Positions 720 through 44,204 are shown, counted from the first letter of the stretch. The stretch is 64,000 nt of DNA from Acidobacteriota bacterium (GCA_040752275.1 JBFMFH010000111.1:60015-124014); one strand, 5' to 3'. Notes: generated from the letters alone by a model not told the origin. Numbers and translations are program-made.

Positions 720-721
720 GG

Positions 722-4505: not shown

Positions 4506-4520
4506 ACCGGCCACACCGTG

Positions 4521-7145: not shown

Positions 7146-7195
7146 CGACCGTGCCTGCTCACTCTGGCGGGGCTGCCCTGGCGGCGCGCCGTCCA

Positions 7196-8971
7196 TCACG
7201 ACCGCCCGCGAAGGATCGCCTGGAGGCGGTCACTCAAACGGCCGTACAGGTACGCGATCCGCTGGTGGCGCCGTTCCCGTTGTCGCGCGCGTTTGTGGGC
7301 GATCCGCGCCTGCTTTCGTTCCTGCTTGGCCGCCACCTGCTGCTGCCGCGTGCGCTGAAGATCGACGAGCCGAGCCGCGCGCGCGCGGTCGCGTGCCGCC
7401 GTCCGCTCCGCGTGGTCGCGAAGCCGTTCTGCCTTCTTCTGGCGGTCAGCCAGTCGTCCGTGGCGCAGGCGGGCGCGTACCGCACGTTCCTCCGCCGCCT
7501 GGCGCCGGTCGAGCAAGGCCGATCGCAACAGTCCTGACGTGCCGGAGCGCACGACCCAGCCCGCCACCGCCGTGTGCCACCTGGCCGCTCGAGATTCCAC
7601 GATCCTGCCGTTTTGAAGCGCCAGAGACTCGACCGCGTCGACGAAGCCCGGCGTGGCCGGGCAGTCGAGGCCTGATGGCCGCACGAACGCCCGCAAGAAG
7701 CGCTCCCGCCGTTCCCGGCCCGTGTCGCCGCGCGCGAGCAGCTCCTCGAGCTGCCGAACGTGGGTGGCCCAGTCGGGCGCCGCCACCAGCAGGCCGTCTT
7801 CCACCTCCAGCAGGTAGCGAAAGTGCCGCATCCCCATCTGGTGCGTTCGAAGCTCCGGTGGCGTCACGGTGAACACGGGCTTGCCGGCGATCGCCGCTTC
7901 GAGAAAGGCACTGGTCACGATGCCGACGACGGCCGCGGCATGTGTCAGCGCGTTGAAGTAGTCGTCCTTGGCCGACTGGTCGACGGGAATGCGACCGGTG
8001 ACGCGGACAATCCCGTCACCGCTCCAGTCGATCGCCTCCCACTCGGCGCGCCGTTCTGGGTGAGGCCGGACCAGCACCGACGCGGCCCGCAGCGCCTGGC
8101 AGTGTGAGCGACGCAGCGCGCCGATCCAGTCCTTCACGACGCGCAGTTCGCCAGGATCAGGCGTCATTGCCGAGCAGACGTACAGCAGGATCGCTTCGCC
8201 GGGAGGGATCGCCAGGTCGGCGCAGAACTGCTCTCTGGCGCGGGTGGGCTGGCGATTGAACCACTGGTCGTAGACCTGGGCGCCGGTCACGACGATCCTG
8301 TCCGGGGGCAGCCCGTGCAGCTCGACCGCTTCGCGCCGCTGAGTCTCGTTCCACACGAAGACGCGATCCGGCGTTTCGCGGATCAGCGTCTTGCTGGACA
8401 GGTGATCCCAGCTGTACACGCAGACGCCCGTCGGAATGCCAAGGCGGCGCGCGCACCGCAGGTGATCCAATTGGGGTGCGCGGGGGTTCGTCACCGAGGC
8501 GAGCAGCAGCGCGTCCGGCCGCTCGCGCGAAAGCCAGGCCTCCATCGCACGACTCACCGGCATCGCGTCGACGACCAAGCCAAGCGCGCGGGCCAAGAGC
8601 GCGCGAGACGGGCGGCTCCTCGCTCCGGGCAGGGCGAGCAGTCGCGCAAGACCGCGCGGCGCGCGTTCCTCGGCGCGTTCGCGGAGCTTCGGGTAGTCGG
8701 CATACAGGGGATCGAGGAACCGGAGGTAGTCGAGGCCCTGGCGGAGCTTTCGGGCCACCGGAAACCAGTCTTCGCCGCCATACGAGGGCGCGTATTCGAA
8801 GCGCACCTGGAGGTGCCGAGCCTGAAGGTCGCGGGCCAGACGCTCTCCGCCCAGGTCTTCCGGTTCGTCGACGAGCAGCGCGATGTCGTGGCCTCGGTCG
8901 GCGAGCGCCGCCACGGCGGATTCGAAGTTCCGAAAGTACGCGGCGTGCAAGGCGCTCACGACGATCTTCAC
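7196..8971 (-). CDS. Putative GT-B glycosyltransferase (domain A) with Arg/Gln-rich helical C-tail
   Basis: YFRNFES, SWDHLSSK, VWNETQRREA, RPHP, VTSAFLEA; GTGA overlap with the upstream gene. Confidence 0.75.
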   Translation of the reverse strand: MKIVVSALHAAYFRNFESAVAALADRGHDIALLVDEPEDLGGERLARDLQARHLQVRFEYAPSYGGEDWFPVARKLRQGLDYLRFLDPLYADYPKLRERAEERAPRGLARLLALPGARSRPSRALLARALGLVVDAMPVSRAMEAWLSRERPDALLLASVTNPRAPQLDHLRCARRLGIPTGVCVYSWDHLSSKTLIRETPDRVFVWNETQRREAVELHGLPPDRIVVTGAQVYDQWFNRQPTRAREQFCADLAIPPGEAILLYVCSAMTPDPGELRVVKDWIGALRRSHCQALRAASVLVRPHPERRAEWEAIDWSGDGIVRVTGRIPVDQSAKDDYFNALTHAAAVVGIVTSAFLEAAIAGKPVFTVTPPELRTHQMGMRHFRYLLEVEDGLLVAAPDWATHVRQLEELLARGDTGRERRERFLRAFVRPSGLDCPATPGFVDAVESLALQNGRIVESRAARWHTAVAGWVVRSGTSGLLRSALLDRRQAAEERAVRARLRHGRLADRQKKAERLRDHAERTAARDRARAARLVDLQRTRQQQVAAKQERKQARIAHKRARQRERRHQRIAYLYGRLSDRLQAILRGRS

Positions 8972-10737
8972 GACGGCCCGCCGCGAGAAGCCGGTTCGAT
9001 CGGTTGCCTGGCGCCGACGACCCGGCGGAGGCGCGCGGTGATGGCGGCCCGAAGTCGTTGGTGCCGGGCTGTCGCGAGGCGGCGCCGCTTCTCACGACGC
9101 CTGGCCGCGCGCTCCCGCCGGCGCTCTGCCTTCAGGCGCCGTTCGCCGATGAACCGGGACGGCAGTGATACGGCTTTTCTCCACCGCCTTCCCACGAGGC
9201 GGCGGATCTCCTGACGGCGATTCTCCGCCAGCTCGGCCTGACGCCTGGCGTGTTCGTCCTGTTCCCGCGGCCCCCGTAGAAGGGACGTCACGGGCCATCG
9301 CCCGGAGGACGCCATGAGGACGCGGGCGGTCAGAACGGCCAGGCGAGCGGGTGGGCTGTCTGCCGCTTCGGCGTGTGCGCACGCTACCCGTTCGACGACG
9401 TCGACGAAGCGCGAGGTGCCGGAAACATCGAGACCGAGCGGCCGCACGAAGTGAGACACGAACGCCCGGCTCCTTGCCACGGCATTCTCCCGGCTCGCCA
9501 GGACGGCTGCGAGCTGGCCGACATGTTCCTCAAGGCTGTGGGATGCGTGCAGCAGACCGTGTGTCGCGTCCAGCAGGTATCGGAAGTGCAGCGTCCCTTC
9601 CTGGCTTTCCTGGAACTCGGGCAGGAGGATCGTGAGCACCGGGCGCTCCAGGATCGCCGCTTCGATCATCGCGCTGGTGTTGAGGCCAACGACCGCGTTC
9701 GCCCAATAGAGCGAGTCGAAGTAGTCGTCACGCGCCTCGGCCGTCACCGGATTACTCCCCCACAGCCTGACGGCCGGGATCTCATCCACGCCAGCACCAT
9801 CCCACTCGCCGAGGCGTGATGGGTGCGGCCGCACGAGGATCGGCATGTCACGCAGATCGGCTGAGGGATTCGATCGAACGGCGTTGATCCAGCGGCGCAC
9901 GAACGCGGCCTCCGACGGGCTCCCACGAAACAGCGCGGAGCACACGTAGAGGACGAATGGCCGATCGGCGGGCAGGCCCATGTCGGTGCAGAACGCTTGG
10001 CGGGTCCTCGTCGGCTGGCGCCCGAACCACCGGTCGAAGCACTGGGCGCCGGTGACCAGGACGCGGTCGGGAGGCACGTTGTGCAGGTCGATCGCTTCCC
10101 GCTTCTGTGTGTCATTCCAGACGGTCACCGCGTCCGGCATGTCCCGCAGAAGAGACTTGCTCGACAGGTTATCCCAGCTCCACACGGCAAACAGGGTTCT
10201 CAATCCCATCCGCCGGGCGGCCGACAGGTACTCGACTTCCGGTGAGCCCAGGCCGATCAGCGGCGTGAACAGCACGATGTCCGGCGCGTGCCCGTCGAGA
10301 AAGGAGCGGATGCCGGTCTCAATCGGCAATGCCCGTTCGACTGCGCGCAACCCCGCGGCAAGCACGCGGCGAGCGGCCTGCCGGCTCGCGCCCGGGACCC
10401 GAAGGAGCCACAGCAGGCCCCTGGGAGCGCGTTCCCATGCCCTCGCACGGAGGCGAGGGGCGCCGGCATAGGTCTCATCGAGGTAGCGGAGGTAGTCGAG
10501 CCCGAGGCGGAACCGTTCCTGCGCCGTTCTGAATCGGTGCAGTTCGACGGACGGCGTCCAGCCGTAGGTGACCGAATCGCGACGCTCAGCGAGCCGCCTG
10601 ACCAGCTCTTCTCCTCCCTGAGCCTCCCGCTGAATCGCGGCCAGGTGAACCGCGTGGCCTCGATCGGCAAGCGCGGCGATCGCCGAGTCGAAGTTCCTGA
10701 GGCAGCCGAAGTGGTGCGTGATAAACAGGACCTTCAT
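8968..10737 (-). CDS. Putative GT-B glycosyltransferase (domain A) with Arg-rich C-tail
   Basis: CLRNFDS, SWDNLSSK, VWNDTQKREA, RPHP, NTSAMIEA, QEGTLHFRYL; ATGA overlap. Confidence 0.75.
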   Translation of the reverse strand: MKVLFITHHFGCLRNFDSAIAALADRGHAVHLAAIQREAQGGEELVRRLAERRDSVTYGWTPSVELHRFRTAQERFRLGLDYLRYLDETYAGAPRLRARAWERAPRGLLWLLRVPGASRQAARRVLAAGLRAVERALPIETGIRSFLDGHAPDIVLFTPLIGLGSPEVEYLSAARRMGLRTLFAVWSWDNLSSKSLLRDMPDAVTVWNDTQKREAIDLHNVPPDRVLVTGAQCFDRWFGRQPTRTRQAFCTDMGLPADRPFVLYVCSALFRGSPSEAAFVRRWINAVRSNPSADLRDMPILVRPHPSRLGEWDGAGVDEIPAVRLWGSNPVTAEARDDYFDSLYWANAVVGLNTSAMIEAAILERPVLTILLPEFQESQEGTLHFRYLLDATHGLLHASHSLEEHVGQLAAVLASRENAVARSRAFVSHFVRPLGLDVSGTSRFVDVVERVACAHAEAADSPPARLAVLTARVLMASSGRWPVTSLLRGPREQDEHARRQAELAENRRQEIRRLVGRRWRKAVSLPSRFIGERRLKAERRRERAARRREKRRRLATARHQRLRAAITARLRRVVGARQPIEPASRGGPS

Positions 10738-11678
10738 GACCGGGGCAGGTCCTCGACGAAGGGCGGGAGGTCCCGGGTGTCGAATCGCGGTATCAGGAAG
10801 CGCTCGTCCTCACCCGTATTCGCGAGACGCCGCGTCGTCGTGAAGCCCAGGCTATAGCCGGACTCGGCGAGCACACGGAGCGTGTGTCCGTCGTAGGTGT
10901 GGGGATGGCCGTACGGAAAGCAGAACGGTACGGAGGCCTGGCCCGACAGGGCCCGTACCCGCGCGACGCCATCGCACAACTCCAGGCGCTGCTCCTCCGG
11001 CGTCAGACGGGAGAGGACCCGGTGATGTTCGGTGTGGAAGCCGAACACCATCCCCGCTGCAGCCATCTGGGCAATGCGGTCGCCGGACAGGTAGAACATC
11101 GAGGCGAAGTCGTGCTGGTCGCCAAACTCGCGCGCGAACAGCTCATCGAGGATGCGATCGGTGGTTTCGAAAGGCAGCTCGTAGTTCAGGAGGTGTTTCA
11201 CCTCCAGATTCGAGGTCTGGTCGTACCGATACACCTCCTGCCGCCACCGGACCCCTATGCCGGCCGCGACGGCGTGCCTCGGCATTGATTCGCGGACAGC
11301 CTCGCTGAACACCTCGGAGCCGAGACGGTCGAGCAGCAGGTGCGTCTTGTGGACGTTGGCGACTCTCCGCCGCTCGGCGTGAGCCTCGCCAACCAGAAAG
11401 AACACGCCGGTCCAGCCGCGCGACTCAAGTACCGGAAACACCGTCTCGAAATGATCCGCAAACCCATCGTCAAACGTCAGGAGCGCGGCACCGTCGAGGC
11501 GGCGTCTGGCGGCCAAGGCGCGCTCCAATTCGTCACAGGCGACGATTCCGCGCTCCGCGGCAATGCGATCGAGCTGACGCCCGAAGTCGTCCGGCGAGAG
11601 TGCGTTGAGCCCGGAGGATGGCCCATTCGTGTCCCGAATGTAGTGGTACATCGCGACGAGACAGCCGGTTGGTGTCAT
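10734..11678 (-). CDS. Polysaccharide deacetylase (CE4/NodB family)
   Basis: MYHY, LLTFDDG, GFHTEHH, FCFPYG and PRFD motifs. Confidence 0.88.
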   Translation of the reverse strand: MTPTGCLVAMYHYIRDTNGPSSGLNALSPDDFGRQLDRIAAERGIVACDELERALAARRRLDGAALLTFDDGFADHFETVFPVLESRGWTGVFFLVGEAHAERRRVANVHKTHLLLDRLGSEVFSEAVRESMPRHAVAAGIGVRWRQEVYRYDQTSNLEVKHLLNYELPFETTDRILDELFAREFGDQHDFASMFYLSGDRIAQMAAAGMVFGFHTEHHRVLSRLTPEEQRLELCDGVARVRALSGQASVPFCFPYGHPHTYDGHTLRVLAESGYSLGFTTTRRLANTGEDERFLIPRFDTRDLPPFVEDLPRS

Positions 11679-12490
11679 GGCGTCACACCACGGAGCGACA
11701 CCAGCCGTACCCGCTCGTCGCGTGCTACACGGTCCGAGAGGTACTCGGCGACCATGCCGGTCTCGAAGTTCCGGTACAGGGTGTGGACCGCGGCCGCCGA
11801 GAAGTCCTTTCGCTGGTACAACCGCCCCTTTGCCACCTGCGGCTCAGCCCTGACATGGCCTGCCGCGTGCGCCAGCGCCGCCTCGGCAAGCATCCGTGCC
11901 CCGGTTACGATGGCCTTGTTGCCGATCTCGTGAGGTCCGTCCCGAGGCTCGATGCCTGGCCTGGTGTGCGCAATGATCGGGCCCGTGTCGATTCCCGCAT
12001 CGAGATAGTGGACCGTCGAGCCCACGAATTCCGGTTCGCGATTGACCAGCGGCCAGAAGTTCGTTCCGGCGCCCCGGTAGTAGGGTGAGAGGCCGAGATG
12101 GAGGTTGATGATGCGACCGTCGAACCGGCCGATGATTCCGGCCCTGAGCAATCCCGTACCAAAGACGAGCACGACGTCGGGGTTGCAGGACGCCATTCTC
12201 GAGATCTCCGCGGGCTCGTTGATGAAGCCCGGCGGCCCGGTCCTTTGCTCGACCCCGGCAGGCAGACGAAGCTGGCGATGAGCCCCGAACGCCGACTCCT
12301 CGGCGGCATCGCGTGCCGCGAAGTGACTGCGGATGACGGCTTCGTCGTCCGGACCGCCTGCGTAGCGCTCGGGGACGAATGACTTCTCTTCCTGCCACAC
12401 GCCGGCGAGGTTGCACCGTTCGGCCACGCAGCCGATCGCGAAATGGTGCCGCAGGAACGTGCTCGTCAGGACGATGACACGGGGAATCAC
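11675..12490 (-). CDS. Formyltransferase-family protein (probable sugar N-formyltransferase)
   Basis: INLHLGLSPYYRG and TVHYLDAGIDTGPII, the N10-formyl-THF transferase signature. Confidence 0.85.
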   Translation of the reverse strand: MIPRVIVLTSTFLRHHFAIGCVAERCNLAGVWQEEKSFVPERYAGGPDDEAVIRSHFAARDAAEESAFGAHRQLRLPAGVEQRTGPPGFINEPAEISRMASCNPDVVLVFGTGLLRAGIIGRFDGRIINLHLGLSPYYRGAGTNFWPLVNREPEFVGSTVHYLDAGIDTGPIIAHTRPGIEPRDGPHEIGNKAIVTGARMLAEAALAHAAGHVRAEPQVAKGRLYQRKDFSAAAVHTLYRNFETGMVAEYLSDRVARDERVRLVSLRGVTP

Positions 12491-14712
12491 GGTAGTCGGA
12501 TGGCCCGCGGGACCCGCTGCGGGCGGGTGAACTCGAGGTACGCGGGCGCGCCTGGCTTCGAGCGCTCGGTCACGGACACTCCCTCAAAACCGTGTTCGGT
12601 GAGCAGGGCCTCGACTGCGGGGCGCGTCTCGTCTGCGACCTCGATCAAGATGGTCGTCAAGCTCGCTGATCTGAGAACACCGGCCGCCCCTCTGAGCACC
12701 TCGAGCTCGCCGCCATCGACATCGAGCTTGATGGCCGTCGGCAGGGGCAGGTCGTACTCCCGCACCAGGGCATCGAGCGTCGTCGCCAGCACCGGCTGTT
12801 CGTAACGTCCGTCACGGGCACTTGGCGCCCGCCGCGGCCGGCGCTCGCGGATCGCGTGCCGGCTCTGGCCTGGTTCGCGGCTGCGGTACTTGAGGCCCAC
12901 CAGTCCGGAGGCCGACCAGAGGGGCAGGGGCACTGGGATGACGTTGCCCTGACACCGGTTGAGAACGAGGTTCTCACACAGGTGTGCGAATGAGGCGTAC
13001 CCTGGTTCGAACGCCACAACGGTGGTCTTCGGCTGACGGCGGGCAGCGATCAGCGTGAAAGTGCCGACATTCGCGCCGATGTCGTACAGAACCGTGTCGA
13101 CGACTGCCACGCGCTCGATCCAGGCCACGGTCCACGGTTCCTTCCGGCACGAGTACGCCCGCCATTGGCGCTCGGCGTCGGATGTTACGCGCAGGCGGAT
13201 GCGAATGGGCTGGTAGTCGAGATCGACGAGCTCTCCCTCGCGGGCCGCGGCGTGACTGGCCGGGAGGCGCACGTCACCCGACCTCGTCGCCTGCTTCTTC
13301 CTCGTGATCTTGGCCATGCGCTCGACGGCCTGTACGAGATACTCCGTGGCGGGGACCTTCAATCCGCGCGGGCGGACAAACGATCCAATGAAGCGTCGGA
13401 TCGCCTCCCGATCGAAGTCGCCCGCCACGCCACGCGCGACCTGGGTCCTGTGTTCGTCGAGCGTGGAGGCTCTTTCGACAAAGCCGCCGCGTTCCTTGAG
13501 CAGGTAGTGGAAATGAATCGAGCTCTCCTGGCCGTCGGCGAATTCCGTCGGCGCGCGAATCGTGAAGACCGGCCGGCCGACAATCCCAGCCTCGATTTCC
13601 GCGCTCGTGTTGAGTCCGACGACCGCCGCGGCGTGGTACAGGCACTCGTAGAGACCCTGATAGGCCGTGAACGGCGCCCGGACGACGGCGACCCGCTCGT
13701 GGGCATAGGGCGTGGTGACCCGCATTCTGACGTCGCCGCCGGGCCCTTCCCAGGCCATCAGGTGTCCCTCGGCGTCCCACTCGGCGTGAAGGTCCGGGTG
13801 GATCTTGATCAGGATGTTGGCCCGCGCGAGGTCCGAGTGCCGGCGGAGGGATTCGATCCACGTTCCGATGAACCCCTCCTCCCGCGCTGCGACGAACTTC
13901 GACGACCCGAGGTAGACGATGATGGGCTGCGCAGGGTCGAACCCGAGGTGCTCGCAGAACGATGCGCGGTCTAACGAGCTCTCCAGACCGAAGAACTCGT
14001 CGAAGCGCGGGGCCCCGGTGACGACGACCCTCTTCTCGGGCACCTGGTGGAGGTCGACGGCCTCGCGAACCTGGATGTCGTTCCAGACGAACACGCGGTC
14101 CGGCACCTCGTGGATCAGACCCTTCGACGAGAGGTTGTCCCAACTGAAGAGAACCATCGCGACAGGCACGCCGAGTGCATGGCAGGCCTTCACGAAGTCG
14201 GTCTGCCCGGACCCGAACTCCACGAGCGGCGACACGAGCACGGCATCCGGGTTCTCGTGACGGATGAACGCTGTGATGCTCTCGTCCACCGGGATCTGTG
14301 CTTCGAGCAGGCCCGCGAGCGATCGCAGCCGGTCGAGTTCATCTCCCGTCAACCCCAGGCCGAACTCGGCTGGCAGCGAACCCGGCTGCCGCCTCCCGTA
14401 GGACAGGGTGTGCAGCAGCTTGTCCAGCGCCCGCGCCCGGAGCTTGAACGCCTCGCTGAACGGCGGGGTCTGGTACCGCAGGTAGTCCCTGAGCCGGCGG
14501 AACAGGCTCGCGTGGTCGCTCCACTCGTCCGCACGCTTGCTGGCGCACGGCGTTGCCGAGACCCCAGGGCACCGGTCCAGTGGAGACGGAACGCCGTGCT
14601 CGCCGTCCTGGTAGGCGAGCCGTACCGCATGCTCGCGCTCGGCAAGCCGGGCCACGACACTCCTGAAGTGTCTCAGGTAGCCCCGCTGCTTCAAGACGAA
14701 CAGGATTCGCAT
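12487..14712 (-). CDS. Domain A glycosyltransferase fused to a FkbM-family methyltransferase
   Basis: N-terminal SWDNLSSK, KIHP, NTSAEIEA; C-terminal LYDIGANVG, VAFEP, IKLDVDGGE (FkbM). Confidence 0.8.
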   Translation of the reverse strand: MRILFVLKQRGYLRHFRSVVARLAEREHAVRLAYQDGEHGVPSPLDRCPGVSATPCASKRADEWSDHASLFRRLRDYLRYQTPPFSEAFKLRARALDKLLHTLSYGRRQPGSLPAEFGLGLTGDELDRLRSLAGLLEAQIPVDESITAFIRHENPDAVLVSPLVEFGSGQTDFVKACHALGVPVAMVLFSWDNLSSKGLIHEVPDRVFVWNDIQVREAVDLHQVPEKRVVVTGAPRFDEFFGLESSLDRASFCEHLGFDPAQPIIVYLGSSKFVAAREEGFIGTWIESLRRHSDLARANILIKIHPDLHAEWDAEGHLMAWEGPGGDVRMRVTTPYAHERVAVVRAPFTAYQGLYECLYHAAAVVGLNTSAEIEAGIVGRPVFTIRAPTEFADGQESSIHFHYLLKERGGFVERASTLDEHRTQVARGVAGDFDREAIRRFIGSFVRPRGLKVPATEYLVQAVERMAKITRKKQATRSGDVRLPASHAAAREGELVDLDYQPIRIRLRVTSDAERQWRAYSCRKEPWTVAWIERVAVVDTVLYDIGANVGTFTLIAARRQPKTTVVAFEPGYASFAHLCENLVLNRCQGNVIPVPLPLWSASGLVGLKYRSREPGQSRHAIRERRPRRAPSARDGRYEQPVLATTLDALVREYDLPLPTAIKLDVDGGELEVLRGAAGVLRSASLTTILIEVADETRPAVEALLTEHGFEGVSVTERSKPGAPAYLEFTRPQRVPRAIRLP

Positions 14713-14729
14713 GCCGTGCGGTCCGTCCT

Positions 14730-15767
14730 TCAGGCCACGCGCCTCGCCAGCACCCGCAGGTTCTTGCCGTACCCACCGGCGTTCGCCAGGAACTGCATCG
14801 TATCGGCAACGCGTTCGAGGACGGTCATGTCCTCACCGAAGACCTCCTGGCGCTGCCAGACGTAGTCGGCAATGTCGAGCCCCTCCGTCTGGACGAGCTC
14901 GACGCGAAGCCCATGACGCTCGAGAAACGTCCGCGCCGTCATGGGAGTGTAGTACGTGAGGTGGTGGGTGGGCCAGATGAAGTGCGCGTCTTTGCCCATC
15001 AGCAGCCTCGACGCCGAGTCGTAGTTCGGCACGTAGATGTAGAGGATGCCCCCGGGGCGGAGGGCCGCGACGCACTGCCGCAGCGTCTCGGACGGATCGA
15101 ACAGGTGCTCCAGCACGTCGAACAGCGACACGGCGTCGAGCGAGCCCCCATCCAGGCCGGATTCCGAGAGGGCGACGGTCTGCAGATCGAGGCCGCGACG
15201 ACGCCCGAACTCGACCGCGGACGGGTTGAGATCGATGCCGCGCGCCCGCCATCCGAGACGACGGGCGGCTTCCACGACGAATCCCGTGCTACAGCCGACG
15301 TCGAGGTACTCGGGACACGGACCGGCGTCAGGCGCCAGGTAGCGGGCCATGGTCGAGACGCGCTCGGTCCCGAAGCGTTCGACCCGGTAGAGATGGCTGG
15401 CCTCGCCGAGGTCCCGCATGATCTCCTGATAGGCCGGCGACCCGTAGACGGCCAGGTAGTGCGCCTCGTCAAACGCCGGGCTGACGTAGACCGTGTCGCA
15501 CGAAGGACAGCGCACGATGGTCAGGTGGTCTTTGTCGATCTCCGGGCGGCCGTCACGTGCGCCGCAGGTCGGGCAGGATCTGGGCACCAGCAGCTCAGGC
15601 GGAATCCGTCCGTGCTTCGCCACGAGTTCGTCGATCGCATGCGTGCGCTTCTCGAACAGACGGCGGTAGGAGTCCTTCGGCCGCAGTCGCGACAGATCGA
15701 CCGGCTCGTAGTCGCCGATGTGCCGGTAGGGCAGCAGCAGATCCCGATCCTGCGTCGCTTCACCCAT
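14730..15767 (-). CDS. Class I SAM-dependent methyltransferase with N-terminal Cys (Zn-ribbon) motifs
   Basis: CPTCG...CPSC, YLDVGCSTG, FDVLEHL, LRPGG, VPN; start taken at MGEATQ. Confidence 0.85.
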   Translation of the reverse strand: MGEATQDRDLLLPYRHIGDYEPVDLSRLRPKDSYRRLFEKRTHAIDELVAKHGRIPPELLVPRSCPTCGARDGRPEIDKDHLTIVRCPSCDTVYVSPAFDEAHYLAVYGSPAYQEIMRDLGEASHLYRVERFGTERVSTMARYLAPDAGPCPEYLDVGCSTGFVVEAARRLGWRARGIDLNPSAVEFGRRRGLDLQTVALSESGLDGGSLDAVSLFDVLEHLFDPSETLRQCVAALRPGGILYIYVPNYDSASRLLMGKDAHFIWPTHHLTYYTPMTARTFLERHGLRVELVQTEGLDIADYVWQRQEVFGEDMTVLERVADTMQFLANAGGYGKNLRVLARRVA

Positions 15768-15768
15768 G

Positions 15769-18700
15769 TCAGGTTTCCTTGTTGGCGCCCAGGATGGCTC
15801 TGACGCGCGTCGCCACGCCGTAGCGCGCGTGCCGGCCAACCCGTCGTATGCGTTTCGGGAGGCTCGACGCCGCCGTCCGTGCCGCGCGCGAGGCGTCGCG
15901 GGCAGCCTTGGCGAGACGGCGCCAGGCGGCGGTCCGCGGGACCTGCTTCAGGGCGCGAAGGATGCTCTTTCGACGACGGTGGACGGCGAACCGGACCTTC
16001 TTCCGGAAGCGGCCGAAATCGGGCCCGAGCACACGCCCGGGGCCGCGGCGGAACAGCCAGACGCCACCGACGAGCGGAGCCAGTATGAACCTGAGCGCCA
16101 CCGCCCCCACCCCGTCCAGAAACGGCAGCGGCGTCAGCGCGCTTGCGCCCTCGAGGACATCCGTGAGAATCGGGACACACGCCTTCTCGAGGCCGTGTGG
16201 TCGAAGGAACGTGGCGACGAAGCGCTCCGACCGGGCCCGAGCCGCGTCGGGCGCGGCAATCGACGCGGCCAGTTGGTCCAGGTGCTCGGGGAGTGTCTTG
16301 GCGACGATGAGGCAGCCCCCGTTCTCCGGCAACAGGTGCTGGAAGTGCACGGTCCCTTCCTGTTTGGCGCCGAAACCCTCACTCAGCAACGTGTGAACCG
16401 GCCTCCCGATGACCGAGGCTTCGATCATGGCGCTGGTGTTGATGCCGACGACAGCCGCGCTGTGGAACAGCGAATCGAAGAAGTCGCCGCGGTTCTGTTC
16501 GTTGGTGGGATCGTGCCGGCCGCGCGGCCAGATCGCCACGTCGGTCAAGTCCGAGAGATCCGCCCCCGCCCACTGGTCGGCGTTGTACGGATGGGGGCGA
16601 ATCAGGATGTTCGCCTCACGCACGGACGCGTCGCCGGCGTTCCGCACCGCATCGACCCAGCTTCGAACAAACGGCACCTCCGAATGCCTGCCGGTGATGA
16701 AGAACGACGAGCCGGTGAAGAGGATGATCGGCCGCGCAGGATTCAGGCCGACCATGGCACAGAATTCCACGCGCGTGCGGCTGGGCTCGCGGTCGAACCA
16801 TCGGTCGAAGGCCTGTGCGCCGGTCACGGCCACCCGCTCCGCCGACACATCGTGCAACTCGACGGCCTCGCGCTTCTGGGCCTCGTTCCACACGGTCACG
16901 AGATCCGGCTCGATGCGAAGGAGCCCCTTGTTCGTGAGGTTGTCCCAACTCGCGATGCAGGCGACCACGGGTATCCGGCTGGCGCGGGCGGCCCGTACCA
17001 GGTCCATCTGATCCGACGCCGCCTCGACGAGAGGTGTGACGAGCACCGCGTTCGGGCTCACGCTCTTGACAAACTGCACCACGCGGCGGCCCGGCGGAAC
17101 GACGGTCTCGAGCCACGCGAGACCGCCGAGCGCGCTTCGCACCAGTCCGGGCGGCCATTGGTGGAACCGGTCCAGCCACCGCAAGAAGCCCGGAAGGGCC
17201 TTGATCTTCATGCGTGCCCGCAGGGCCGGGACGTGGCTCAGACGGGGATCCAGGTAGCGGATGAAGTCCATCGTGCCCCGTACCCAGTCGGCCAGCGAAC
17301 CCCATGCGTCGCAGCGTGCCGGCACGTCCCCTATGTACCGGATGCCGTCGGATCCTCCCCTGAACCGGGCCTGTTTGGGTCCCTTGGTGGCATTGACCGC
17401 CAGCACGACATCGAGACCGCGCGCAGCAAGTGCTTTCAAGGTGTCGTCGTAGAAGCGCAGGTACTCGGGCGAGCGCATGACGAACAGCAACCGTCGCCCG
17501 CGAGGCGCCCTATCCGCGCCCGGGGATGGCGGTTCTTTCGGGCTCCGCCGCAACCGTCGGGCCAGGCGCGCCAGCACCATGGCCGCCGGTCTGAGAACCG
17601 CGCTGGACAATCCGGGGCCTCGGGCTGCGATCGGCCGTTGTGCGACCTCTTCGATGGCGTCAGCCAGAATCGGGCTGGCCGGACGGTCGAGACCGTGCGG
17701 CCGGACGAACGTCTCGATGAACGCGCGGCCCCGGTTCTGGAACGCGCCGGGGTTCTCGAGAAGCGCGCCGAGTTGGGCCACATGCTCATCGAGCGACGCT
17801 GCTTCGACGAGCAGACCCCCACTGACCTGCTTCAGGTGCTGGAAGTGCAGCGTGCCGTCCTGCGTTCCCGAGAACTCCGGGGTCCGAACCGTGAACACCG
17901 GCCGGCCGACGATGCCCGACTCGATGAGGGCGCTCGTATTCACCCCAACCACTGCGGCGCTGTAGTACATCGAGTGGAAGTAGTCGGCCCGCGCTCCAGC
18001 GTCCACCGGGTTCGAGCCAGCCCGCGGCCAGATGATGACGGGTCCGAGGGCCGACAGCTCTTCGTCGCGCCATTGATCGGCGTTCTGCGGGTGCGGCCGG
18101 ATCAGCACGGCCACGCTCCGCAGGCGCGCGTCCGGCGCCGCGCGTAGCGCGAGGAGCCACCGCCTCACGAAGCCGACCTCGTAGGGCGTGATGAAGGGTG
18201 ATGAGCACAGGTAGCAGAGCATCTGCGACCCGGCCGGCAGCCCTGTCCGGCTGCAGAACTCGTCTCTGGTCAGCGTCGGCGCGGCGGCGAACCAGTGGTC
18301 GTAGGCGCTCGCGCCGGTGACGCGCACGATTCCCGCCGGAATATGGTGTAACGACGCCGCTTCCTCCCGTTGCGCCTCGTTCCACACCGTCACCGCGTCC
18401 GGTATCTCGTGAATGAGGCCCTTGGTCGTCAGGTGGTCCCATGAACCGACACACAGCACGCTGGGAATGCCACGGCGGCGGGCAGCACGAACGTAGTCCA
18501 CCTGCTGCGAGCCGAAATAGAGCAGCGGCGTCACCATGAACACGTCGGGCGCGTGCGTCCGGAGCACGTCGTCAGCGAAGGGGGCGCCGGGAACTGCACG
18601 TTCCATCGCGCGGATGGCCGCGGAGAGCATCCGTCGCACGGGCGGGTGGCGCCCTATCAGGCTCCAATTCCCGATCCGCACCGCCGGTCGCGGCACCTCC

Positions 18701-19008
18701 CGGGCGGCGCGCTCGCGCAGCGCGACGGCGCTCGCGTAGACCGGATCCAGGTAGCGCCAGTAGTCGAGGGTGAGCCGGAGCGACTTCTTGAGCAGATGCG
18801 CCGGGTCGCTCTTCACGCTCGGGCTGATCTCCCACGTGAAGGCGTCCTTCGCCACCCGCTGGAGGTTCTCGAGCGTGCGCATGCCGCCAAGCGTGTCCCG
18901 CCGGTCTGCCAGGAGGTGGATTCTGTGACCGCGCCGTGCGAGCTCGGCGAGGCCGTGCTCGAAATTGCGAAGGAACCCGAAGTGGCTGGTGGAGAAGAGG
19001 ATCTTCAC
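15769..19008 (-). CDS. Tandem double domain A glycosyltransferase (A-A, ~1079 aa)
   Basis: Two full repeats (SWDHLTTK/RPHP/NTSALIES and SWDNLTNK/RPHP/NTSAMIEA). The likely start is GTG at 19008 (GTGA overlap), not 19923. Confidence 0.78.
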   Translation of the reverse strand: MKILFSTSHFGFLRNFEHGLAELARRGHRIHLLADRRDTLGGMRTLENLQRVAKDAFTWEISPSVKSDPAHLLKKSLRLTLDYWRYLDPVYASAVALRERAAREVPRPAVRIGNWSLIGRHPPVRRMLSAAIRAMERAVPGAPFADDVLRTHAPDVFMVTPLLYFGSQQVDYVRAARRRGIPSVLCVGSWDHLTTKGLIHEIPDAVTVWNEAQREEAASLHHIPAGIVRVTGASAYDHWFAAAPTLTRDEFCSRTGLPAGSQMLCYLCSSPFITPYEVGFVRRWLLALRAAPDARLRSVAVLIRPHPQNADQWRDEELSALGPVIIWPRAGSNPVDAGARADYFHSMYYSAAVVGVNTSALIESGIVGRPVFTVRTPEFSGTQDGTLHFQHLKQVSGGLLVEAASLDEHVAQLGALLENPGAFQNRGRAFIETFVRPHGLDRPASPILADAIEEVAQRPIAARGPGLSSAVLRPAAMVLARLARRLRRSPKEPPSPGADRAPRGRRLLFVMRSPEYLRFYDDTLKALAARGLDVVLAVNATKGPKQARFRGGSDGIRYIGDVPARCDAWGSLADWVRGTMDFIRYLDPRLSHVPALRARMKIKALPGFLRWLDRFHQWPPGLVRSALGGLAWLETVVPPGRRVVQFVKSVSPNAVLVTPLVEAASDQMDLVRAARASRIPVVACIASWDNLTNKGLLRIEPDLVTVWNEAQKREAVELHDVSAERVAVTGAQAFDRWFDREPSRTRVEFCAMVGLNPARPIILFTGSSFFITGRHSEVPFVRSWVDAVRNAGDASVREANILIRPHPYNADQWAGADLSDLTDVAIWPRGRHDPTNEQNRGDFFDSLFHSAAVVGINTSAMIEASVIGRPVHTLLSEGFGAKQEGTVHFQHLLPENGGCLIVAKTLPEHLDQLAASIAAPDAARARSERFVATFLRPHGLEKACVPILTDVLEGASALTPLPFLDGVGAVALRFILAPLVGGVWLFRRGPGRVLGPDFGRFRKKVRFAVHRRRKSILRALKQVPRTAAWRRLAKAARDASRAARTAASSLPKRIRRVGRHARYGVATRVRAILGANKET

Positions 19009-20768
19009 CGCAACAACCCGTTCACGGCACCCCTGATCCCGCGTCGCGCGAACCCGCGGACTGTCTTCAGCCCCCTCCGCACCCGCTTCGACAACAGGCC
19101 GCCGAATCGCCGGACCCGCTGAGAGCCTTCGTGTCTGGCCCGCCGAAGGGAACGGCTGACGCGCCGCGCTGCACGATCCCGCGCGCGTCTCCCTCGGTTC
19201 CACGCCGGCGTCACGAGTGCCTGCAGCCGAAACGCCACGGCGAGGACGCCGACCGCGACAGCGACGGCGGGCCGGATCAAGAGACCTGCCCACAGGGGCC
19301 GGTTCCTGGTCGACCAGAGGCTTCTGAGCACGATCGCAGGAAGCCAGAGGACCGCTCGAGCCGCCGGAGCCCACCAGGAGGGTCCCGTTGCCTTGACGTC
19401 CAGCGAGGCGCACGCCTCGACGGCCTCCGCCAGCAGCGGTGTCGCCGCCATGTCGAGTCCGAACGGACGTACGAATGCCTCGACGAACCGCCGGCTCTGT
19501 GTTGCCGTGTCGTGGCCGGGCGCGAGGACCGCTTCCAGGTCCTCGATGTGCGCCCGCATGCTGTCTGCCGCCCGCACTACCCCTCCTGCCACCTGCAAGA
19601 GATACCGGAAGTGCAGCGTTCCCTCCTGGGAGTGGGCAAACTCGGGCGCCAGGACGGCGCAGACCGGTCGCCCCACGATGCCGGCCTCGATGAGGGCGCT
19701 GGTGTTCACACCGACCACCGCTCCACTGTGGTAGAGGGAGTCGAAGAAATCCTTCTTGGCATTGGGCGAGAACGGATCGGCTCCAGGCGGGGGCCAGACA
19801 CAGGCATTGGCAAACCCGCTCAGGTCGACGCGGCCCCACTGGTCGAAGTTGTTGGGGTGGGGCCTGAACAGCACCCCCGTGCCGGCCAGCACTCCTGGCG
19901 TCGACCGGAGCGTGGCCAGCCACCTGACCGCGAACGCCGCCTCGTGCGGCGCGAGGAAGTAGGAGGATCCGACATACACGAGGATGGGCCGGTCTGGCGC
20001 CAGACCGACGTCGCGGCAGAACACTTCCCGCGTACGGCTTGGCGTCCAGCCGAACCAGTGATCGAAGATCTGGGCTCCGGTCACGACCACACGGTCCGCT
20101 GGAACGCCATGCATCTCGACGAGCTCGCTTCTCTGGACTTCGTTCCAGACGAAGATGCGGTCGGGCGCCAGTTTGACCGTTCCCTTGTTCGTCAAATTGT
20201 CCCAGCTCGCGACGCCGAGGGCCGAGGGGATCCCGCTTCTCCGCGCCGCCTTGATGTAGTCGACCTGCGGCGACCCGAAGTCCACGAGCGGCGTCACGAC
20301 GACGAGGTCGGGCGCCTGCTCGCGAAGGAACTCGGCAATGGCGCGGCTCGGTGGGAGCACCGATTCAATCGACCTCAACAGGGCACTCAGCGCGCGAACC
20401 GCCGACGGTCCGGCCTTCGCCACCAGCCCCGCGATCGTGAGGTAGCCCTTCTGCAGGAACTTCTCGGCTCGCTGCCGCAGCAGGGGCGCGTTTCGATAGC
20501 GGGGATCGAGATAGCGGAGGTAGTCGAGCAGGGTGCGGGCGATGGTCGCCAGCGTGTTCCAGGTGTTGTCCTCCCGCTGCGGACATAGTCCGTAACTGAC
20601 ACCGGCACACCCCGCCGCCAGCCGATCCGCCAGCACGGTTTCTCCGAACTTGTCCCGGTCGCCTTCGTAGGCAATGTGAACGCGGTGACCGCGAGAGTCC
20701 AGCAGCCTGATGAGCGGGTCGTAGTTCCGAACGAACCCGGCATGGCGCATGAGCCACAGGATCTTCAT
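19005..20768 (-). CDS. Putative GT-B glycosyltransferase (domain A) with hydrophobic and Arg-rich C-tail
   Basis: FVRNYD, SWDNLTNK, RPHP, NTSALIEA, QEGTLHFRYL. Confidence 0.75.
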   Translation of the reverse strand: MKILWLMRHAGFVRNYDPLIRLLDSRGHRVHIAYEGDRDKFGETVLADRLAAGCAGVSYGLCPQREDNTWNTLATIARTLLDYLRYLDPRYRNAPLLRQRAEKFLQKGYLTIAGLVAKAGPSAVRALSALLRSIESVLPPSRAIAEFLREQAPDLVVVTPLVDFGSPQVDYIKAARRSGIPSALGVASWDNLTNKGTVKLAPDRIFVWNEVQRSELVEMHGVPADRVVVTGAQIFDHWFGWTPSRTREVFCRDVGLAPDRPILVYVGSSYFLAPHEAAFAVRWLATLRSTPGVLAGTGVLFRPHPNNFDQWGRVDLSGFANACVWPPPGADPFSPNAKKDFFDSLYHSGAVVGVNTSALIEAGIVGRPVCAVLAPEFAHSQEGTLHFRYLLQVAGGVVRAADSMRAHIEDLEAVLAPGHDTATQSRRFVEAFVRPFGLDMAATPLLAEAVEACASLDVKATGPSWWAPAARAVLWLPAIVLRSLWSTRNRPLWAGLLIRPAVAVAVGVLAVAFRLQALVTPAWNRGRRARDRAARRVSRSLRRARHEGSQRVRRFGGLLSKRVRRGLKTVRGFARRGIRGAVNGLLR

Positions 20769-22093
20769 GGCGCCATCGATGCCGGAGCCGAGACCCCTCG
20801 ATCGGCGTAGCGTTCCGCGAGGAACCGTGCGATGCGCCCGTCTCCCAGGAACCCGTCATCCGCGCCCCACTTGCGAACGTAGCTCAGCTCCCGGCGATAC
20901 GCCTCGGCAGCCTCGGTGGCTCGATCCCTGAAGACCGCCTGTGCCTCGCACTCCGACCATCGGTTCGAAAGGCCCTGCAGCATCTCTTCGACCGCCAGGA
21001 CGATGTCTTTCGGTGTGTTGTCCACGTACGCGAATCGGCCGGTGTCGCGGAGGTGCGCGAGGTAGTCGGCCCCGAGGAGGTCCACAGGCTTCAGCGCCTG
21101 GCCGGTGAACCGATCGACGACGGTCTTGAAGACGTAGATCCCGTCCTTCCTGACGGGATACGAGCTGATCGGATCCGTGACGTTGACATTGAGAACAGGT
21201 GTGTTCGTCAGGTAGCTCACGCCAACGGGTCCGGCTTCACCGGAGAGGAGGAAGTCGCTCCGCATCAGGCTGTGCACCTGCACTCTGGCCGTGGCGCCGC
21301 TGCACGTGGCCAGGTCGACGACTCCCGCCCGTCGCAGCGGGGTCATCGTCCGGTCGCCGAGGCGGACGATGGTGTAGCCTCTTGCGACGAGCAGGTCGAT
21401 GGCGTCGAAGTAGGTCTCGATGCTGGCATTGCGGGCGCCATCGTCGCGGACGTCCGTGCTGCCCAGACGCCGGTGCTTCTCGTGGACCTCGTACCCCATC
21501 TTGAACCCGCCCTCGCGGGCGTGGATGGTGACGATGCGGCTCGTCCGGCCGATGCCGAGGCGTTCGGCTTCCGTGCACGCCCGTTCATGGACGTCCGCCG
21601 GCAAGTACACGGGAAGGCAGTCTCGTATCAGGCGGCGGTGGAAGTACGGCACGATCTGCCCGTTTCTGGCCGCCGTCCTTGCCTGGTCTCCTGCCAGGCT
21701 CCTCTTGAGCTGTCTCAGGTAGCCGCGCAGATTATCGGGTAGGGTCGGATCGAGGACATGTGACGCCAGCTCCTTGCCCAGCTCGTCTCGAAGCGAGTCT
21801 GTGACCCGGCTCACCTTGGGACGGATGAGCCGGACGACATCGGCTGCCGCAAGCCGGGCCCGGTAGCCGACCCGCGCGGGCAACCGGGGATGAACCCGGT
21901 GCACGACCTCGGATTCCAGGTCCAGAAGCGTCGGGTTGACGGGACGCCTCGGCGGCAGAATGCACAATGGCACTCGCCTGGCTCGCGCCTCCGCCATGGA
22001 CATCAAGATCTCGAGCGCCAGGTGTCCGAACTGGCGTCCATTTGGCCGCGATATCAGGAGGCCGTCGACCGCGTAAAGGAACTCGACTGTCAC
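20765..22093 (-). CDS. Putative glycosyltransferase, TIGR04372-like
   Basis: FGHLALE, VTIHAREGG and RNASIETYFDAIDLL..RGY.IVRLGD resemble the TIGR04372 family (recognised by eye). Confidence 0.65.
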   Translation of the reverse strand: MTVEFLYAVDGLLISRPNGRQFGHLALEILMSMAEARARRVPLCILPPRRPVNPTLLDLESEVVHRVHPRLPARVGYRARLAAADVVRLIRPKVSRVTDSLRDELGKELASHVLDPTLPDNLRGYLRQLKRSLAGDQARTAARNGQIVPYFHRRLIRDCLPVYLPADVHERACTEAERLGIGRTSRIVTIHAREGGFKMGYEVHEKHRRLGSTDVRDDGARNASIETYFDAIDLLVARGYTIVRLGDRTMTPLRRAGVVDLATCSGATARVQVHSLMRSDFLLSGEAGPVGVSYLTNTPVLNVNVTDPISSYPVRKDGIYVFKTVVDRFTGQALKPVDLLGADYLAHLRDTGRFAYVDNTPKDIVLAVEEMLQGLSNRWSECEAQAVFRDRATEAAEAYRRELSYVRKWGADDGFLGDGRIARFLAERYADRGVSAPASMAP

Positions 22094-23421
22094 GACTCCC
22101 GGTCGACCTCTCCCTGGACACCACGCATGCTCGAGGAGCCTGCCGGGTCGGCGGCTGTCGGGAGGGCCGTGCCGTAGCTGGCAACGAGGGCCGCGTGGCG
22201 AACGTCCAGAGGGATGAATGTGCCGGCACCAAGGTGCGCGAAGACTTGCTGGGCGAAGTTCAGGTGGGTCCGGCTGAAGGTGTGACCTTCCGAGTAGAAC
22301 GCCAGCGTGGCGACGCCCAGCAGCGGCGCGAGATACGAAAACCCTCCATAGGTGCCGACGAAGGCTTCGGCCCCGGCAATGATGCGGGTCTGCAGTTCGA
22401 GGTTCGCCCTGACATCGTCACCAATGGGAGGCGTCAGGACCCGCGAGGACGTGGCCTCGGTGTGCTCGCTGTGGTCGTCCACGCCCGATCCGGTCGCCAG
22501 CAAGACCACCGGCACCTGTTCGCTGACCTGCCGGATCACTCGCCGGACAAAGCTGCGGTTCTCCGGAGTCTCGGGAAACGCCAGGCTGTAGTACCACTTC
22601 ATCGCGACGTACCGAGAGGGAAGGCCCGCCGGTCTCTCGTGCTGTCCGACGTCGATCCTGCGGTGGCACGTGAGGCGATCGAGGATGCCCGGGTTTTCGC
22701 CGTCCTTCCAGACGGGCGTGAACGCCTGGTACATGAGCCTGGGGTGCATCAGATGGATGGCGCACCCGAGGCGCTGGCGCACGGCAGCAATGATCTCGCT
22801 GTCGAGCTCCGTCATCCGCAGCTGCTTCCGTGATTGCGACGTGGCCACCTGGAAGCGGTCGACGGTGATCAGGTCGAAGACATCGATGTACCGGTCGGCC
22901 AAACCCCGGTACCAGAGCCCGGTCCCGCCTCGAGACACGACGATCAGGCGCTCGGGTGGCACGTCGAATGTGTTCACGGCCCAGGTCACGAAGGGGATCC
23001 AGTACAGAAGCTCGAATCCGACCTCACCCGTCCACGGCCCCACCACAATCGGACGTTTCGTCGACCTCATATGGGCGAGGTGCCGCCGGAGCCGCTCTTC
23101 GGTACGGCGATGGCCCCGGAACAGCGTTGCGGCCTCGGCGAAGGTGTTGACGCCGGCCGCGAGGCTCTGCTGTTCCCGGCGGATCTCCGTGACCGACTTC
23201 GAGACCAGGCGTTCGATGCGAGCCAGATCGGCTTCGAAGCGCTTGTCCGTGACCTTCCGGCCCGTGCGGTCTTCGTGGTCCCGCTCTCGCTGCTTGTCCC
23301 AGTGCCGCCTGAGGAATCTGAGGTGCTCGACCGCTTCTCTGAGGTGCTCCTCGTCTGTCGAGGTCAGCAGCCGCCGCAATGCCACCCGGGCGCGCGATGC
23401 AACTCGATTCAGCCAGCGCAT
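22090..23421 (-). CDS. Stand-alone domain B protein with N-terminal charged coiled-coil
   Basis: GPWTGEVGFELLYWIPF, VVSRGG, HPRLMY and FVGTYGGFSYLAPL, shared with the C-halves of 1869-4505 and 4521-7145. Confidence 0.72.
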   Translation of the reverse strand: MRWLNRVASRARVALRRLLTSTDEEHLREAVEHLRFLRRHWDKQRERDHEDRTGRKVTDKRFEADLARIERLVSKSVTEIRREQQSLAAGVNTFAEAATLFRGHRRTEERLRRHLAHMRSTKRPIVVGPWTGEVGFELLYWIPFVTWAVNTFDVPPERLIVVSRGGTGLWYRGLADRYIDVFDLITVDRFQVATSQSRKQLRMTELDSEIIAAVRQRLGCAIHLMHPRLMYQAFTPVWKDGENPGILDRLTCHRRIDVGQHERPAGLPSRYVAMKWYYSLAFPETPENRSFVRRVIRQVSEQVPVVLLATGSGVDDHSEHTEATSSRVLTPPIGDDVRANLELQTRIIAGAEAFVGTYGGFSYLAPLLGVATLAFYSEGHTFSRTHLNFAQQVFAHLGAGTFIPLDVRHAALVASYGTALPTAADPAGSSSMRGVQGEVDRES

Positions 23422-26292: not shown

Positions 26293-26314
26293 GACCCGTC
26301 CTCGGGCCGACCGA

Positions 26315-44034: not shown

Positions 44035-44125
44035 TCGTCGAGCGCCTGCTGTTCGAGTGCGGGGGCGCGCATCGGCCGGAAGAGCCGCACGAGCACCGCG
44101 GCCTGTTCGGGGTTCATCAGTGCAG

Positions 44126-44131: not shown

Positions 44132-44204
44132 GTCATTCCCGGCCAGGTTCCTGTAGTAGAGTTCCAACGTGGCGCGTCTGTCCGACCGGCGACGCCATCC
44201 CACC

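Follow-up and report, generated by a model that had tools for sequence, protein, structure and literature searches.

We analyzed a 64,000-nucleotide stretch of the genome of a soil acidobacterium (Acidobacteriota bacterium, GCA_040752275.1 JBFMFH010000111.1:60015-124014; hereafter, the window) in which a single protein domain, which we call domain A, recurs eight times in tightly packed genes that all lie on the minus strand. The genome carries nine copies in total, each of ~455 amino acids (aa), and a whole-genome profile search found no further copy. Domain A was originally predicted to be a new family of transferases using cytidine monophosphate (CMP)-activated nonulosonates, of the sialyl or 3-deoxy-D-manno-octulosonate (Kdo) type. 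The analyses below indicate that domain A belongs to a large, unnamed glycosyltransferase (GT)-B family that is very probably a deeply divergent branch of the TagF/TagB-like superfamily, and they make the transfer of sialic-acid-like sugars the best single reading of its function. The copies, with their scores against the family profile, are as follows.

3135..4514, minus strand: domain A copy 1, spanning the first 460 aa of P1 (open reading frame [ORF] 1869-4514, 881 aa, A+B fusion); 703 bits.
5775..7154, minus strand: domain A copy 2, in P2 (ORF 4521-7199, 892 aa, A+B fusion); 717 bits.
7607..8971, minus strand: domain A copy 3, in P3 (ORF 7196-8971, 591 aa, basic C-terminal tail); the copy modelled by AlphaFold2 (AF2).
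9373..10737, minus strand: domain A copy 4, in P4 (ORF 8968-10737, 589 aa, basic C-terminal tail); 727 bits.
13288..14712, minus strand: domain A copy 5, in P5 (ORF 12487-14712, 741 aa), with the KIHP variant and a methyltransferase fusion; 616 bits.
12583..13092, minus strand: FkbM-type methyltransferase domain at the C-terminus of P5 (residues 541-710); PF05050 55 bits, TIGR01444 86 bits.
17629..19008, minus strand: domain A copy 6a, first domain of P6 (ORF 15769-19008, 1079 aa, A+A fusion); 677 bits.
16114..17508, minus strand: domain A copy 6b, second domain of P6, RGL variant; 652 bits.
19404..20768, minus strand: domain A copy 8, in P8 (ORF 19005-20768, 587 aa, hydrophobic and basic C-terminal tail); 690 bits.
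C111:58363-60003, just outside the window, before base 1: ninth domain A copy, from the whole-genome profile search.

The eight window copies share 32-49% pairwise identity over ~455 aa, with 59 alignment columns invariant across all of them, and each scores 590-727 bits against the family profile, so their motifs recur by homology rather than by chance. The motifs SWD[HN]L[ST][STN]K, VWN[DE]xQ, [RK][PI]HP (RPHP in seven copies, KIHP in one) and G[LVI][NV]T[ST]AxxE were present in all eight copies, and the N-terminal motif reads RGH in six, REH in one and RGL in one; the predicted set of eight copies with shared motifs was thus borne out, variants included. The range first given for the array, 7196-20768, holds for six of these copies (those of P3, P4, P5 and P8 and both of P6) and misses those of P1 and P2, at 1869-7199. 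In P1, the motifs are RGH29, SWDHLSSK191, VWNETQ210, RPHP307 and GLNTSAFLE354; in P2, whose true start is likely the MKILF methionine near 7145, they fall at 205, 224, 321 and 369. The start codon of P6 is a GTG (19008) overlapping the P8 stop, and not that of the longer 1384-aa open frame.

Copies 3 and 9 (A3 and A9) form a younger pair with 59.6% identity, and seven of the nine are each closer to counterparts in 24-51 other loci than to any paralogue of the same genome. The array is thus old, with each copy separately maintained. Four proteins also end in strongly basic tails: the C-terminal ~125 aa of P3 (7196-7570), P4 (8968-9342), P8 (19005-19379) and P6 (15769-16143) contain 24-30% arginine plus lysine, and the P8 and P6 tails are preceded by hydrophobic stretches. 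These tails may anchor the proteins in the membrane or bind an anionic polymer.

Curated databases do not name domain A. No Pfam family reached its cut-off, with Glyco_transf_4 appearing below threshold; NCBIfam returned only matches far below cut-off, to NF046086 BFO_1060_trans (20-45 bits against a cut-off of 200) and TIGR04396; and sequence searches of the PDB with the 8-row and 68-row domain A profiles and with the profile of the intermediate relatives described below gave chance-level matches only. By contrast with this blank, a search of 1.84 billion cluster representatives returned 7,921 proteins that match the domain A profile at an expect value (E) of <= 1e-3, 5,338 of them at E <= 1e-10 and 2,164 at E <= 1e-30, many with two or three tandem domains. 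Close homologues that carry a name are nearly always called "hypothetical protein", and the named sources are metagenome-assembled genomes (MAGs) of Acidobacteria/Vicinamibacterales. We found no paper on the family in the literature on nonulosonate, pseudaminyl/legionaminic or TagF-like transferases, in a search that covered text outside figures and supplements. The family, though large, thus has no name and goes under "hypothetical protein" in current databases.

Conservation was assessed in a 68-sequence family set, which was also used for all model tests below, with residues numbered as in P3. S187, W188, D189, L191, W207, N208, E214, G230, D235, F238, E275, H304, G350, E358, H383, F425 and R431 are invariant; K194, Q211, R302, P303, P305 and N352-A355 are nearly so. 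The best conserved stretch is the N-lobe SWDxLxxK...VWNxxQ...VTGAxxD, and residues 151-245 are 53% identical among the paralogues, compared with 30% for a helical insert at residues 61-150.

The AF2 model of copy 3, built from the eight-row alignment, has two Rossmann-like beta/alpha lobes (predicted local distance difference test [pLDDT] score 85.7, predicted template modelling [pTM] score 0.87). The conserved motifs sit at strand ends in the model, with SWD after strand 181-184, WN after 203-206, HP after 298-302 and TS after 347-350, a topology from which we infer that they face the GT-B cleft. A Foldseek search of the PDB returned at least 500 matches at E <= 0.001, with only GT-B proteins among the matches listed, at template modelling (TM) scores of ~0.5. 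The top match was the uridine diphosphate (UDP)-N-acetylglucosamine (GlcNAc) 2-epimerase 1f6d (E 3.3e-11, TMq 0.55), followed by the GT4 enzyme MshA and NeuC. Computation thus shows a two-lobed GT-B fold for the modelled domain, in support of the prediction that domain A is a GT-B transferase; since the matches are generic, the fold by itself does not name the family.

The family was placed through intermediate relatives, fetched from other genomes of the phylum, that match the domain A profile at E 1e-21 to 1e-38. A profile of 16 intermediates aligned with that of domain A over 434 columns (hhalign Prob 100, E 1.6e-48), the two sharing the motifs SWDN..K, VW, G..Q.D, RPHP and ST..D. Five of 10 intermediates pass the gathering cut-off of Pfam Glyphos_transf (PF04464; 22.1 bits) at 23.4-31 bits, and all 10 match NF046086 BFO_1060 at 33-64 bits. 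The intermediates in turn aligned with a profile of five true TagF-like proteins (171-210 bits) over 211 columns, in the C-lobe only (Prob 94.5, E 7.5e-8), an alignment that pairs RPHP with K-x-H, ST..D with DYSS..D, and VvGtPQFD with GYPRND. The donor-side residues of domain A thereby align to K279/H281 and S320/S321/D325 of the true TagF-like profile. Against the PDB, this last profile matched TarL 8va1 (2e-35) and TagF 3l7i (4.6e-31), as well as Bcs3 and Cps3D, and placed TagF H444 in WHG, R582/H584 in RMH and S624/S625/D629 in DYSS..D. Chained together, the alignments equate domain A R302/H304 with TagF R582/H584, and T353/S354/E358 with TagF S624/S625/D629.

Published work assigns roles to these positions. 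In the portions of PMC11666461 that we draw on, TagF H444 is described as the likely base and H584 as complexing the pyrophosphate of cytidine diphosphate (CDP)-glycerol, and R607, H609, S647, S648 and D652 as conserved in the CgoT/TagF donor site; the corresponding portions of PMC10901376 describe TarL H433 as contacting the alpha-phosphate and helping CMP to depart. Given the chained mapping and these roles, the HP and NTS motifs of domain A would hold the donor by its CMP end. The transitive alignment onto the CMP-end residues of TagF thus supports the earlier claim that these motifs bind a cytidine-nucleotide donor. Taken together, the profile comparisons argue strongly, and with a high probability in our estimate, that domain A is a deeply divergent branch of the TagF/TagB-like superfamily with a CMP-leaving-group donor.

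With the TagF-likes (PF04464: TagF 3L7I-3L7M, TarL 8VA1, Bcs3, Cps3D CgoT), domain A shares the GT-B fold, the C-lobe R-x-H, S-S..D/E and G-x-x-x-x-D elements that align via the intermediates, CMP as the expected leaving group, and fusion to another GT domain. It differs in the N-lobe. The first histidine of TagF and TarL (H444 and H300, respectively), in the motif WHG/QHG, was found in none of the eight domain A copies, and the N-lobe invariants are instead S187, W188, D189, W207, N208, E214 and D235. Among these conserved residues, D189 and D235 are candidates for the catalytic base.

The nearest curated relative is the BFO_1060 family (NF046086), exemplified by Tannerella forsythia Tanf_01245/TFUB4_00887 of the S-layer O-glycan pathway. 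It is the best curated match for all 68 members, each below cut-off (best E 2.6e-10), compared with 23 of 68 for TIGR04396. Domain A matches the BFO_1060 model at positions 43-180 (of 365) and matches none of the TarB/TarF/TarL models, whereas all five true TagF-likes match the Tar models and meet NF046086 only at positions 218-363; domain A and the BFO_1060 model thus have an N-lobe similarity in common that true TagF-likes are without. The passages of PMC5420450 available for this comparison report that knock-outs of BFO_1060 homologues in Tannerella lose the terminal pseudaminic (Pse) or legionaminic (Leg) acid derivative, that the family combines a TagB/GT-B domain with an HP motif and adjoins CMP-nonulosonate genes, and that TagB-like nonulosonate transferases were proposed in 2017. 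Because of that proposal, domain A would be a variant of a kind already put forward. It departs from BFO_1060, which was compared by model match and description only, in its score (20-45 bits against 200), in the ~90-aa helical insert, in having no conserved DXD or D/E-D/E-G, and in its arrays of up to nine copies with A+A, A+B and A+methyltransferase fusions.

Domain A did not fall into the established sialyltransferase or Kdo-transferase families. Roles of HP and D/E-D/E-G-type motifs in bacterial sialyltransferases were reportedly described by Freiberger in 2007. With GT38/42/52/80 (NmB-polyST, CstII, Lst/NST and PmST1), domain A shares an HP after a C-lobe strand, a Ser/Thr pair starting the next helix and, as postulated for domain A, a CMP-sugar donor; the HP motif is present in all eight copies, with H304 invariant and P305 nearly invariant over the 68 sequences. 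However, none of the 68 members matched the corresponding models (PF07388, PF06002, PF07922 and PF11477). No GT38/42/52/80 gene was found in the genome either, although PF07922, PF11477 and PF06002 matched no control genome, so those three blanks are weak. KpsC/KpsS-type enzymes (GT107, GT99, GT118 KpsS1 and GT140 KrkA), which act in surface-glycan loci with CMP-Kdo or CMP-Pse donors according to excerpts of PMC12887879, resemble domain A in those loci and in the kind of donor, a CMP-ulosonate, proposed for it. We rejected a KpsC/KpsS-like identity for domain A: none of the 68 members matches PF05159, no KpsC entry is among the Foldseek matches listed, and the only PF05159 match in the genome, on contig C127, scores 16.8 bits, below cut-off. 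The statement that no canonical sialyltransferase is visible therefore extends from the window to the genome, where no GT38/42/52/80 or KpsC/S-type gene was found. The "sialyl/Kdo-type" label fails in its GT38/52/80/107 sense and survives in that a nonulosonate donor is the best reading available, for a family that is a divergent TagF/TagB-like branch.

The domain A genes are embedded in a set of genes for sugar activation and glycan assembly. The nearest features, together with a second recurring domain, domain B, are as follows.

722..1951, minus strand: neuC-like hydrolysing UDP-sugar 2-epimerase, directly downstream of P1; Epimerase_2 PF02350, 228.8 bits.
Frame 3..1007, domain ~291-707, minus strand: neuA-like CMP-nonulosonate synthetase; CTP_transf_3 PF02348, 78.8 bits; genome match C111:60305-60721.
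1872..2894, minus strand: domain B in P1, with the GPWxSEVGFELLYWIPF motif; local hidden Markov model (HMM) 620 bits.
4524..5534, minus strand: domain B in P2; local HMM 617 bits.
22093..23121, minus strand: stand-alone domain B (ORF 22090-23421, 443 aa), the copy modelled; local HMM 584 bits.
10734-11678, minus strand: polysaccharide deacetylase, embedded in the array; PF01522, 62.8 bits.
11675-12490, minus strand: formyltransferase, embedded in the array; PF00551, 49.5 bits.
14730..15839, minus strand: S-adenosylmethionine (SAM)-dependent methyltransferase between P5 and P6; PF13489, 66.6 bits.
20765..22093, minus strand: TIGR04372-family glycosyltransferase, 442 aa; NCBIfam TIGR04372, 99.8 bits against a cut-off of 45.

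The array genes share one orientation, and neighbours either overlap or are separated by <= 20 nt; the number of terminator-like sites does not exceed that in shuffled sequence (six found, compared with a shuffle mean of 7.1). The prediction had placed the array in one transcript with neuC and neuA; both genes were confirmed in the same direction, and co-transcription itself is what this orientation, the tight packing and the lack of a terminator excess suggest. Beyond the window, downstream, lie the ninth copy, a 456-aa protein of no known kind, a NeuB with a SAF domain, a second NeuC (243 bits) and a second NeuA, together with two copies of domain B and genes for a dehydratase, an oxidoreductase and a DegT aminotransferase (in a region including L035:12091-18342). 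In total the contig holds three NeuB and four CTP_transf_3 genes, with KdsB on another contig. From ~23,000 to ~153,000 of contig C111, ~130 kb of genes, the whole window included, lie almost entirely on the minus strand, an unusually large single-direction glycan super-cluster.

Domain B is marked by the signature GPWxSEVGFELLYWIPF ... GTYGGFSYLAPLLG, has no Pfam match and occurs in five copies, all on contig C111, two of them outside the window (L035:10796-13143). Its AF2 model is also GT-B (pLDDT 79.6), and its closest folds are the GT9 heptosyltransferases WaaC and TibC and GT1 enzymes, at TM ~0.4. Domain B is thus ill suited to the nonulosonate step but plausible as a partner enzyme. Window positions 34134-35759 on the minus strand encode an HldE-like bifunctional enzyme of reversed domain order (CTP_transf_like, then PfkB kinase), which could supply an adenosine diphosphate (ADP)-heptose-type donor to domain B. 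The window also holds a UDP-sugar dehydrogenase and, at 52165-56439 on the minus strand, a 1,424-aa protein that joins a polyprenyl-phosphate sugar-phosphate transferase of the WecA/MraY type (PF00953) to a complete GT4 (PF13439 + PF00534) and probably primes the pathway.

Across genomes, domain A is linked to the genes for nonulosonate synthesis. In a sample of 301 genomes of the phylum, 22 genomes from 19 genera carry domain A (match at E <= 1e-20) and 94 encode NeuB, a tally that includes the NeuB-positive genome G049, which is without domain A. NeuB is present in 21 of the 22 carriers, the exception being 55% complete, compared with 73 of 279 non-carriers, and lies <= 13 kb from domain A in 11 of the 22. 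Among nine control genomes with true TagF-like matches (E <= 1e-13), NeuB was on the same contig in none and anywhere in the genome in three. In 71 loci around homologues in a species-genome collection, at least two domain A copies were found in 58, domain B in 54, NeuB in 33, NeuA in 37, NeuC in 42 and any of these last three in 52. The co-occurrence with neuA/neuB that the original prediction had proposed as a check was thus found, with tight linkage both within and across genomes.

Five loci in which close homologues form the same array (L054, L056, L089, L092 and L101) come from MAGs labelled Bifidobacteriaceae, Acidimicrobiia and Gammaproteobacteria, and reflect either horizontal spread or binning errors.

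Taken together, these data suggest, with roughly even odds by our judgement, that domain A transfers CMP-nonulosonate onto a cell-surface glycan. This is the best single reading because of the resemblance to BFO_1060 and the NeuB linkage specific to this branch, and also because neither CDP-polyol supply genes nor another candidate transferase was found. Each copy would take a cytidine-activated donor with CMP as the leaving group, the likeliest donors being the CMP-nonulosonates that three NeuB and four NeuA-type enzymes encoded in this one-directional super-cluster would make. The acceptor hydroxyl would be activated by an invariant carboxylate (D189 or D235), H304 would assist CMP departure, and the sugar would move to a growing glycan, which the WecA-like primase in the cluster suggests to be undecaprenyl-linked. 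The nine paralogues, being old and individually conserved, probably differ in acceptor, linkage or nonulosonate type, and domain A would work alongside the GT9-like domain B that is fused to two of its copies. A fuller picture, which we offer tentatively and regard as rather doubtful, is that in Vicinamibacterales and their relatives a TagF scaffold has become a CMP-nonulosonate glycosyltransferase family in which a carboxylate replaces the WHG base, with up to nine specialised paralogues, interleaved with and fused to domain B, acting as an assembly line whose product is an undecaprenyl-linked heteroglycan unusually rich in several sialic-acid-like sugars.

Several observations weigh against a CMP-nonulosonate donor, or against the superfamily placement on which it builds. 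Direct hhalign of domain A with the true TagF-likes gave nothing, either locally or globally (Prob 0.1), and the link between domain A and TagF is for that reason transitive. PF04464 matches none of the eight window copies and only two of 68 members, both below threshold (best E 0.0085), and domain A fails every curated cut-off, that of NF046086 included. In the Foldseek ranking, TagF 3l7l comes 46th (E 1.1e-8), behind UDP-GlcNAc 2-epimerases and GT4 enzymes, and Glyco_transf_4 matches 34 of 68 members below threshold. No alignment column triple fits D/E-D/E-G, which has stray, non-aligned occurrences in three of eight copies. An equivalence of SWD with the TagF WHG, considered from their shared W-[HD]-x4-K spacing, was rejected: global hhalign offsets the two motifs, and in N-lobe-only comparisons, which were not significant (Prob 1.4 and 0.2), WHG paired with a different strand, so the equivalence was dropped as evidence. 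Nine transferase domains beside three NeuB and four NeuA are more than a scheme of one sugar and one enzyme needs. The 71 loci come mostly from Vicinamibacterales MAGs, with some loci overlapping and some short, so that counts drawn mostly from one order are not independent and the linkage describes a conserved super-operon more than independent events. Finally, excerpts of PMC7439481 describe Bacillus subtilis SpsB as having a TagB domain and HP motifs and lying beside CMP-Leg genes, yet not being required for Leg on spores, which by analogy is a counter-example to reading a TagB-domain neighbour as a nonulosonate transferase.

One alternative is that domain A keeps TagF-type chemistry and transfers a polyol phosphate or sugar 1-phosphate: attack on the phosphorus of a CDP-polyol or nucleoside diphosphate (NDP)-sugar would release a nucleoside monophosphate and build a teichoic-acid-like polymer, joined by phosphodiester links, to which other enzymes add the nonulosonates. 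The transitive superfamily membership, with its retained R-x-H and S-S..D donor residues, would fit such chemistry, as would the ESM Atlas, in which 25 of 30 named look-alike clusters belong to the PF04464-carrying set, although the family makes up only 12% of the cluster shown. TagF-like capsule polymerases also frequently carry an ordinary GT domain in the same protein (sections of PMC11666461), as in the fusion of A to B, and the arginine- and lysine-rich tails recall the basic patches with which TarL, according to sections of PMC10901376, meets anionic polymer. However, no copy has WHG/QHG, the N-lobe carrying the invariant SWD, WN and D235 instead; no TarB/TarF/TarL model that all true TagF-likes match is matched by domain A; and the control TagF-like genes were linked to NeuB in none of nine genomes, in contrast with domain A. 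No TagF was found in the genome, nor were supply genes for a TagF-like enzyme: the best TagD (TIGR01518) score is 44 bits against a cut-off of 165, and IspD/TarI is represented by the housekeeping copy only, apart from a weak match on a NeuA-like gene. We therefore consider this alternative unlikely.

An equally improbable alternative is that domain A is an ordinary NDP-sugar glycosyltransferase adding neutral or amino sugars, with the nonulosonate added by domain B, the TIGR04372 enzyme or another protein, as the SpsB precedent would allow. That nine copies exceed the nonulosonate pathways, that the top Foldseek matches are generic GT-B proteins (GT4 MshA, GT1 and epimerases) and that half of the family weakly matches Glyco_transf_4 would all accord with such an enzyme, and the UDP-sugar dehydrogenase, HldE-like enzyme and dehydratases of the cluster could serve one. 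Yet the donor-side motifs fit a TagF-like CMP-leaving-group site and not the GT4 pattern, the closest curated model is a nonulosonate transferase, and the genome would be left without any recognisable enzyme for that step, given that domain B is GT9-like and has an ADP-heptose-type enzyme to supply it. It is very improbable that domain A is instead a non-transferring sugar-nucleotide epimerase/hydrolase of the UDP-GlcNAc 2-epimerase (NeuC) type within the nonulosonate pathways, since the top Foldseek matches to such enzymes (1f6d, as above, and 5zlr, UDP-GlcNAc 2-epimerases and NeuC) at TM 0.5-0.55 reflect the shared GT-B fold only, and the sub-threshold matches to Epimerase_2 (5/68 members) and NeuC_NnaA (11/68) are set against profile links that lead to the TagF-like and BFO_1060 families, two full-scoring NeuC enzymes already in the cluster (229 and 243 bits), and nine paralogues whose fusions (tandem A+A, and A+B) and membrane-type tails suit enzymes of assembly and not a pathway step.

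If domain A does use CMP-nonulosonates, it would be the largest nonulosonate-transferase family yet recognised, with ~7,900 representative clusters. Known transferases for pseudaminic, legionaminic and related nonulosonic acids are few, although the biosynthetic genes are common (NeuB in 94/301 genomes), and in an abundant soil phylum domain A offers a concrete, testable candidate for these missing enzymes, with donor-site residues that can be mapped onto the TagF and TarL structures. A phosphotransferase fold would then have been reused for glycosyl transfer from CMP-sugars, with possible new catalysts for nonulosonosides; should other donors be used, the result would still define a new TagF-like branch.

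Other parts of the window held features of their own, all on the minus strand. An acetolactate-synthase-like thiamine pyrophosphate (TPP) enzyme, confirmed by Pfam, lies inside the sugar cluster at 24460-26394, and two frames at 27856-29915 resemble pyruvate-dehydrogenase E1 alpha/beta, as judged by eye only; from their resemblance, these genes suggest a two-carbon branch or an unusual acyl modification of a sugar. Four predicted proteins of 317-679 aa (41327-42280, 42301-44340, 46754-48613 and 49259-50335) match no Pfam family at E <= 1e-4. The 40-44 kb stretch of the window shows a sharp swing in AT-skew, from -0.23 to +0.20.

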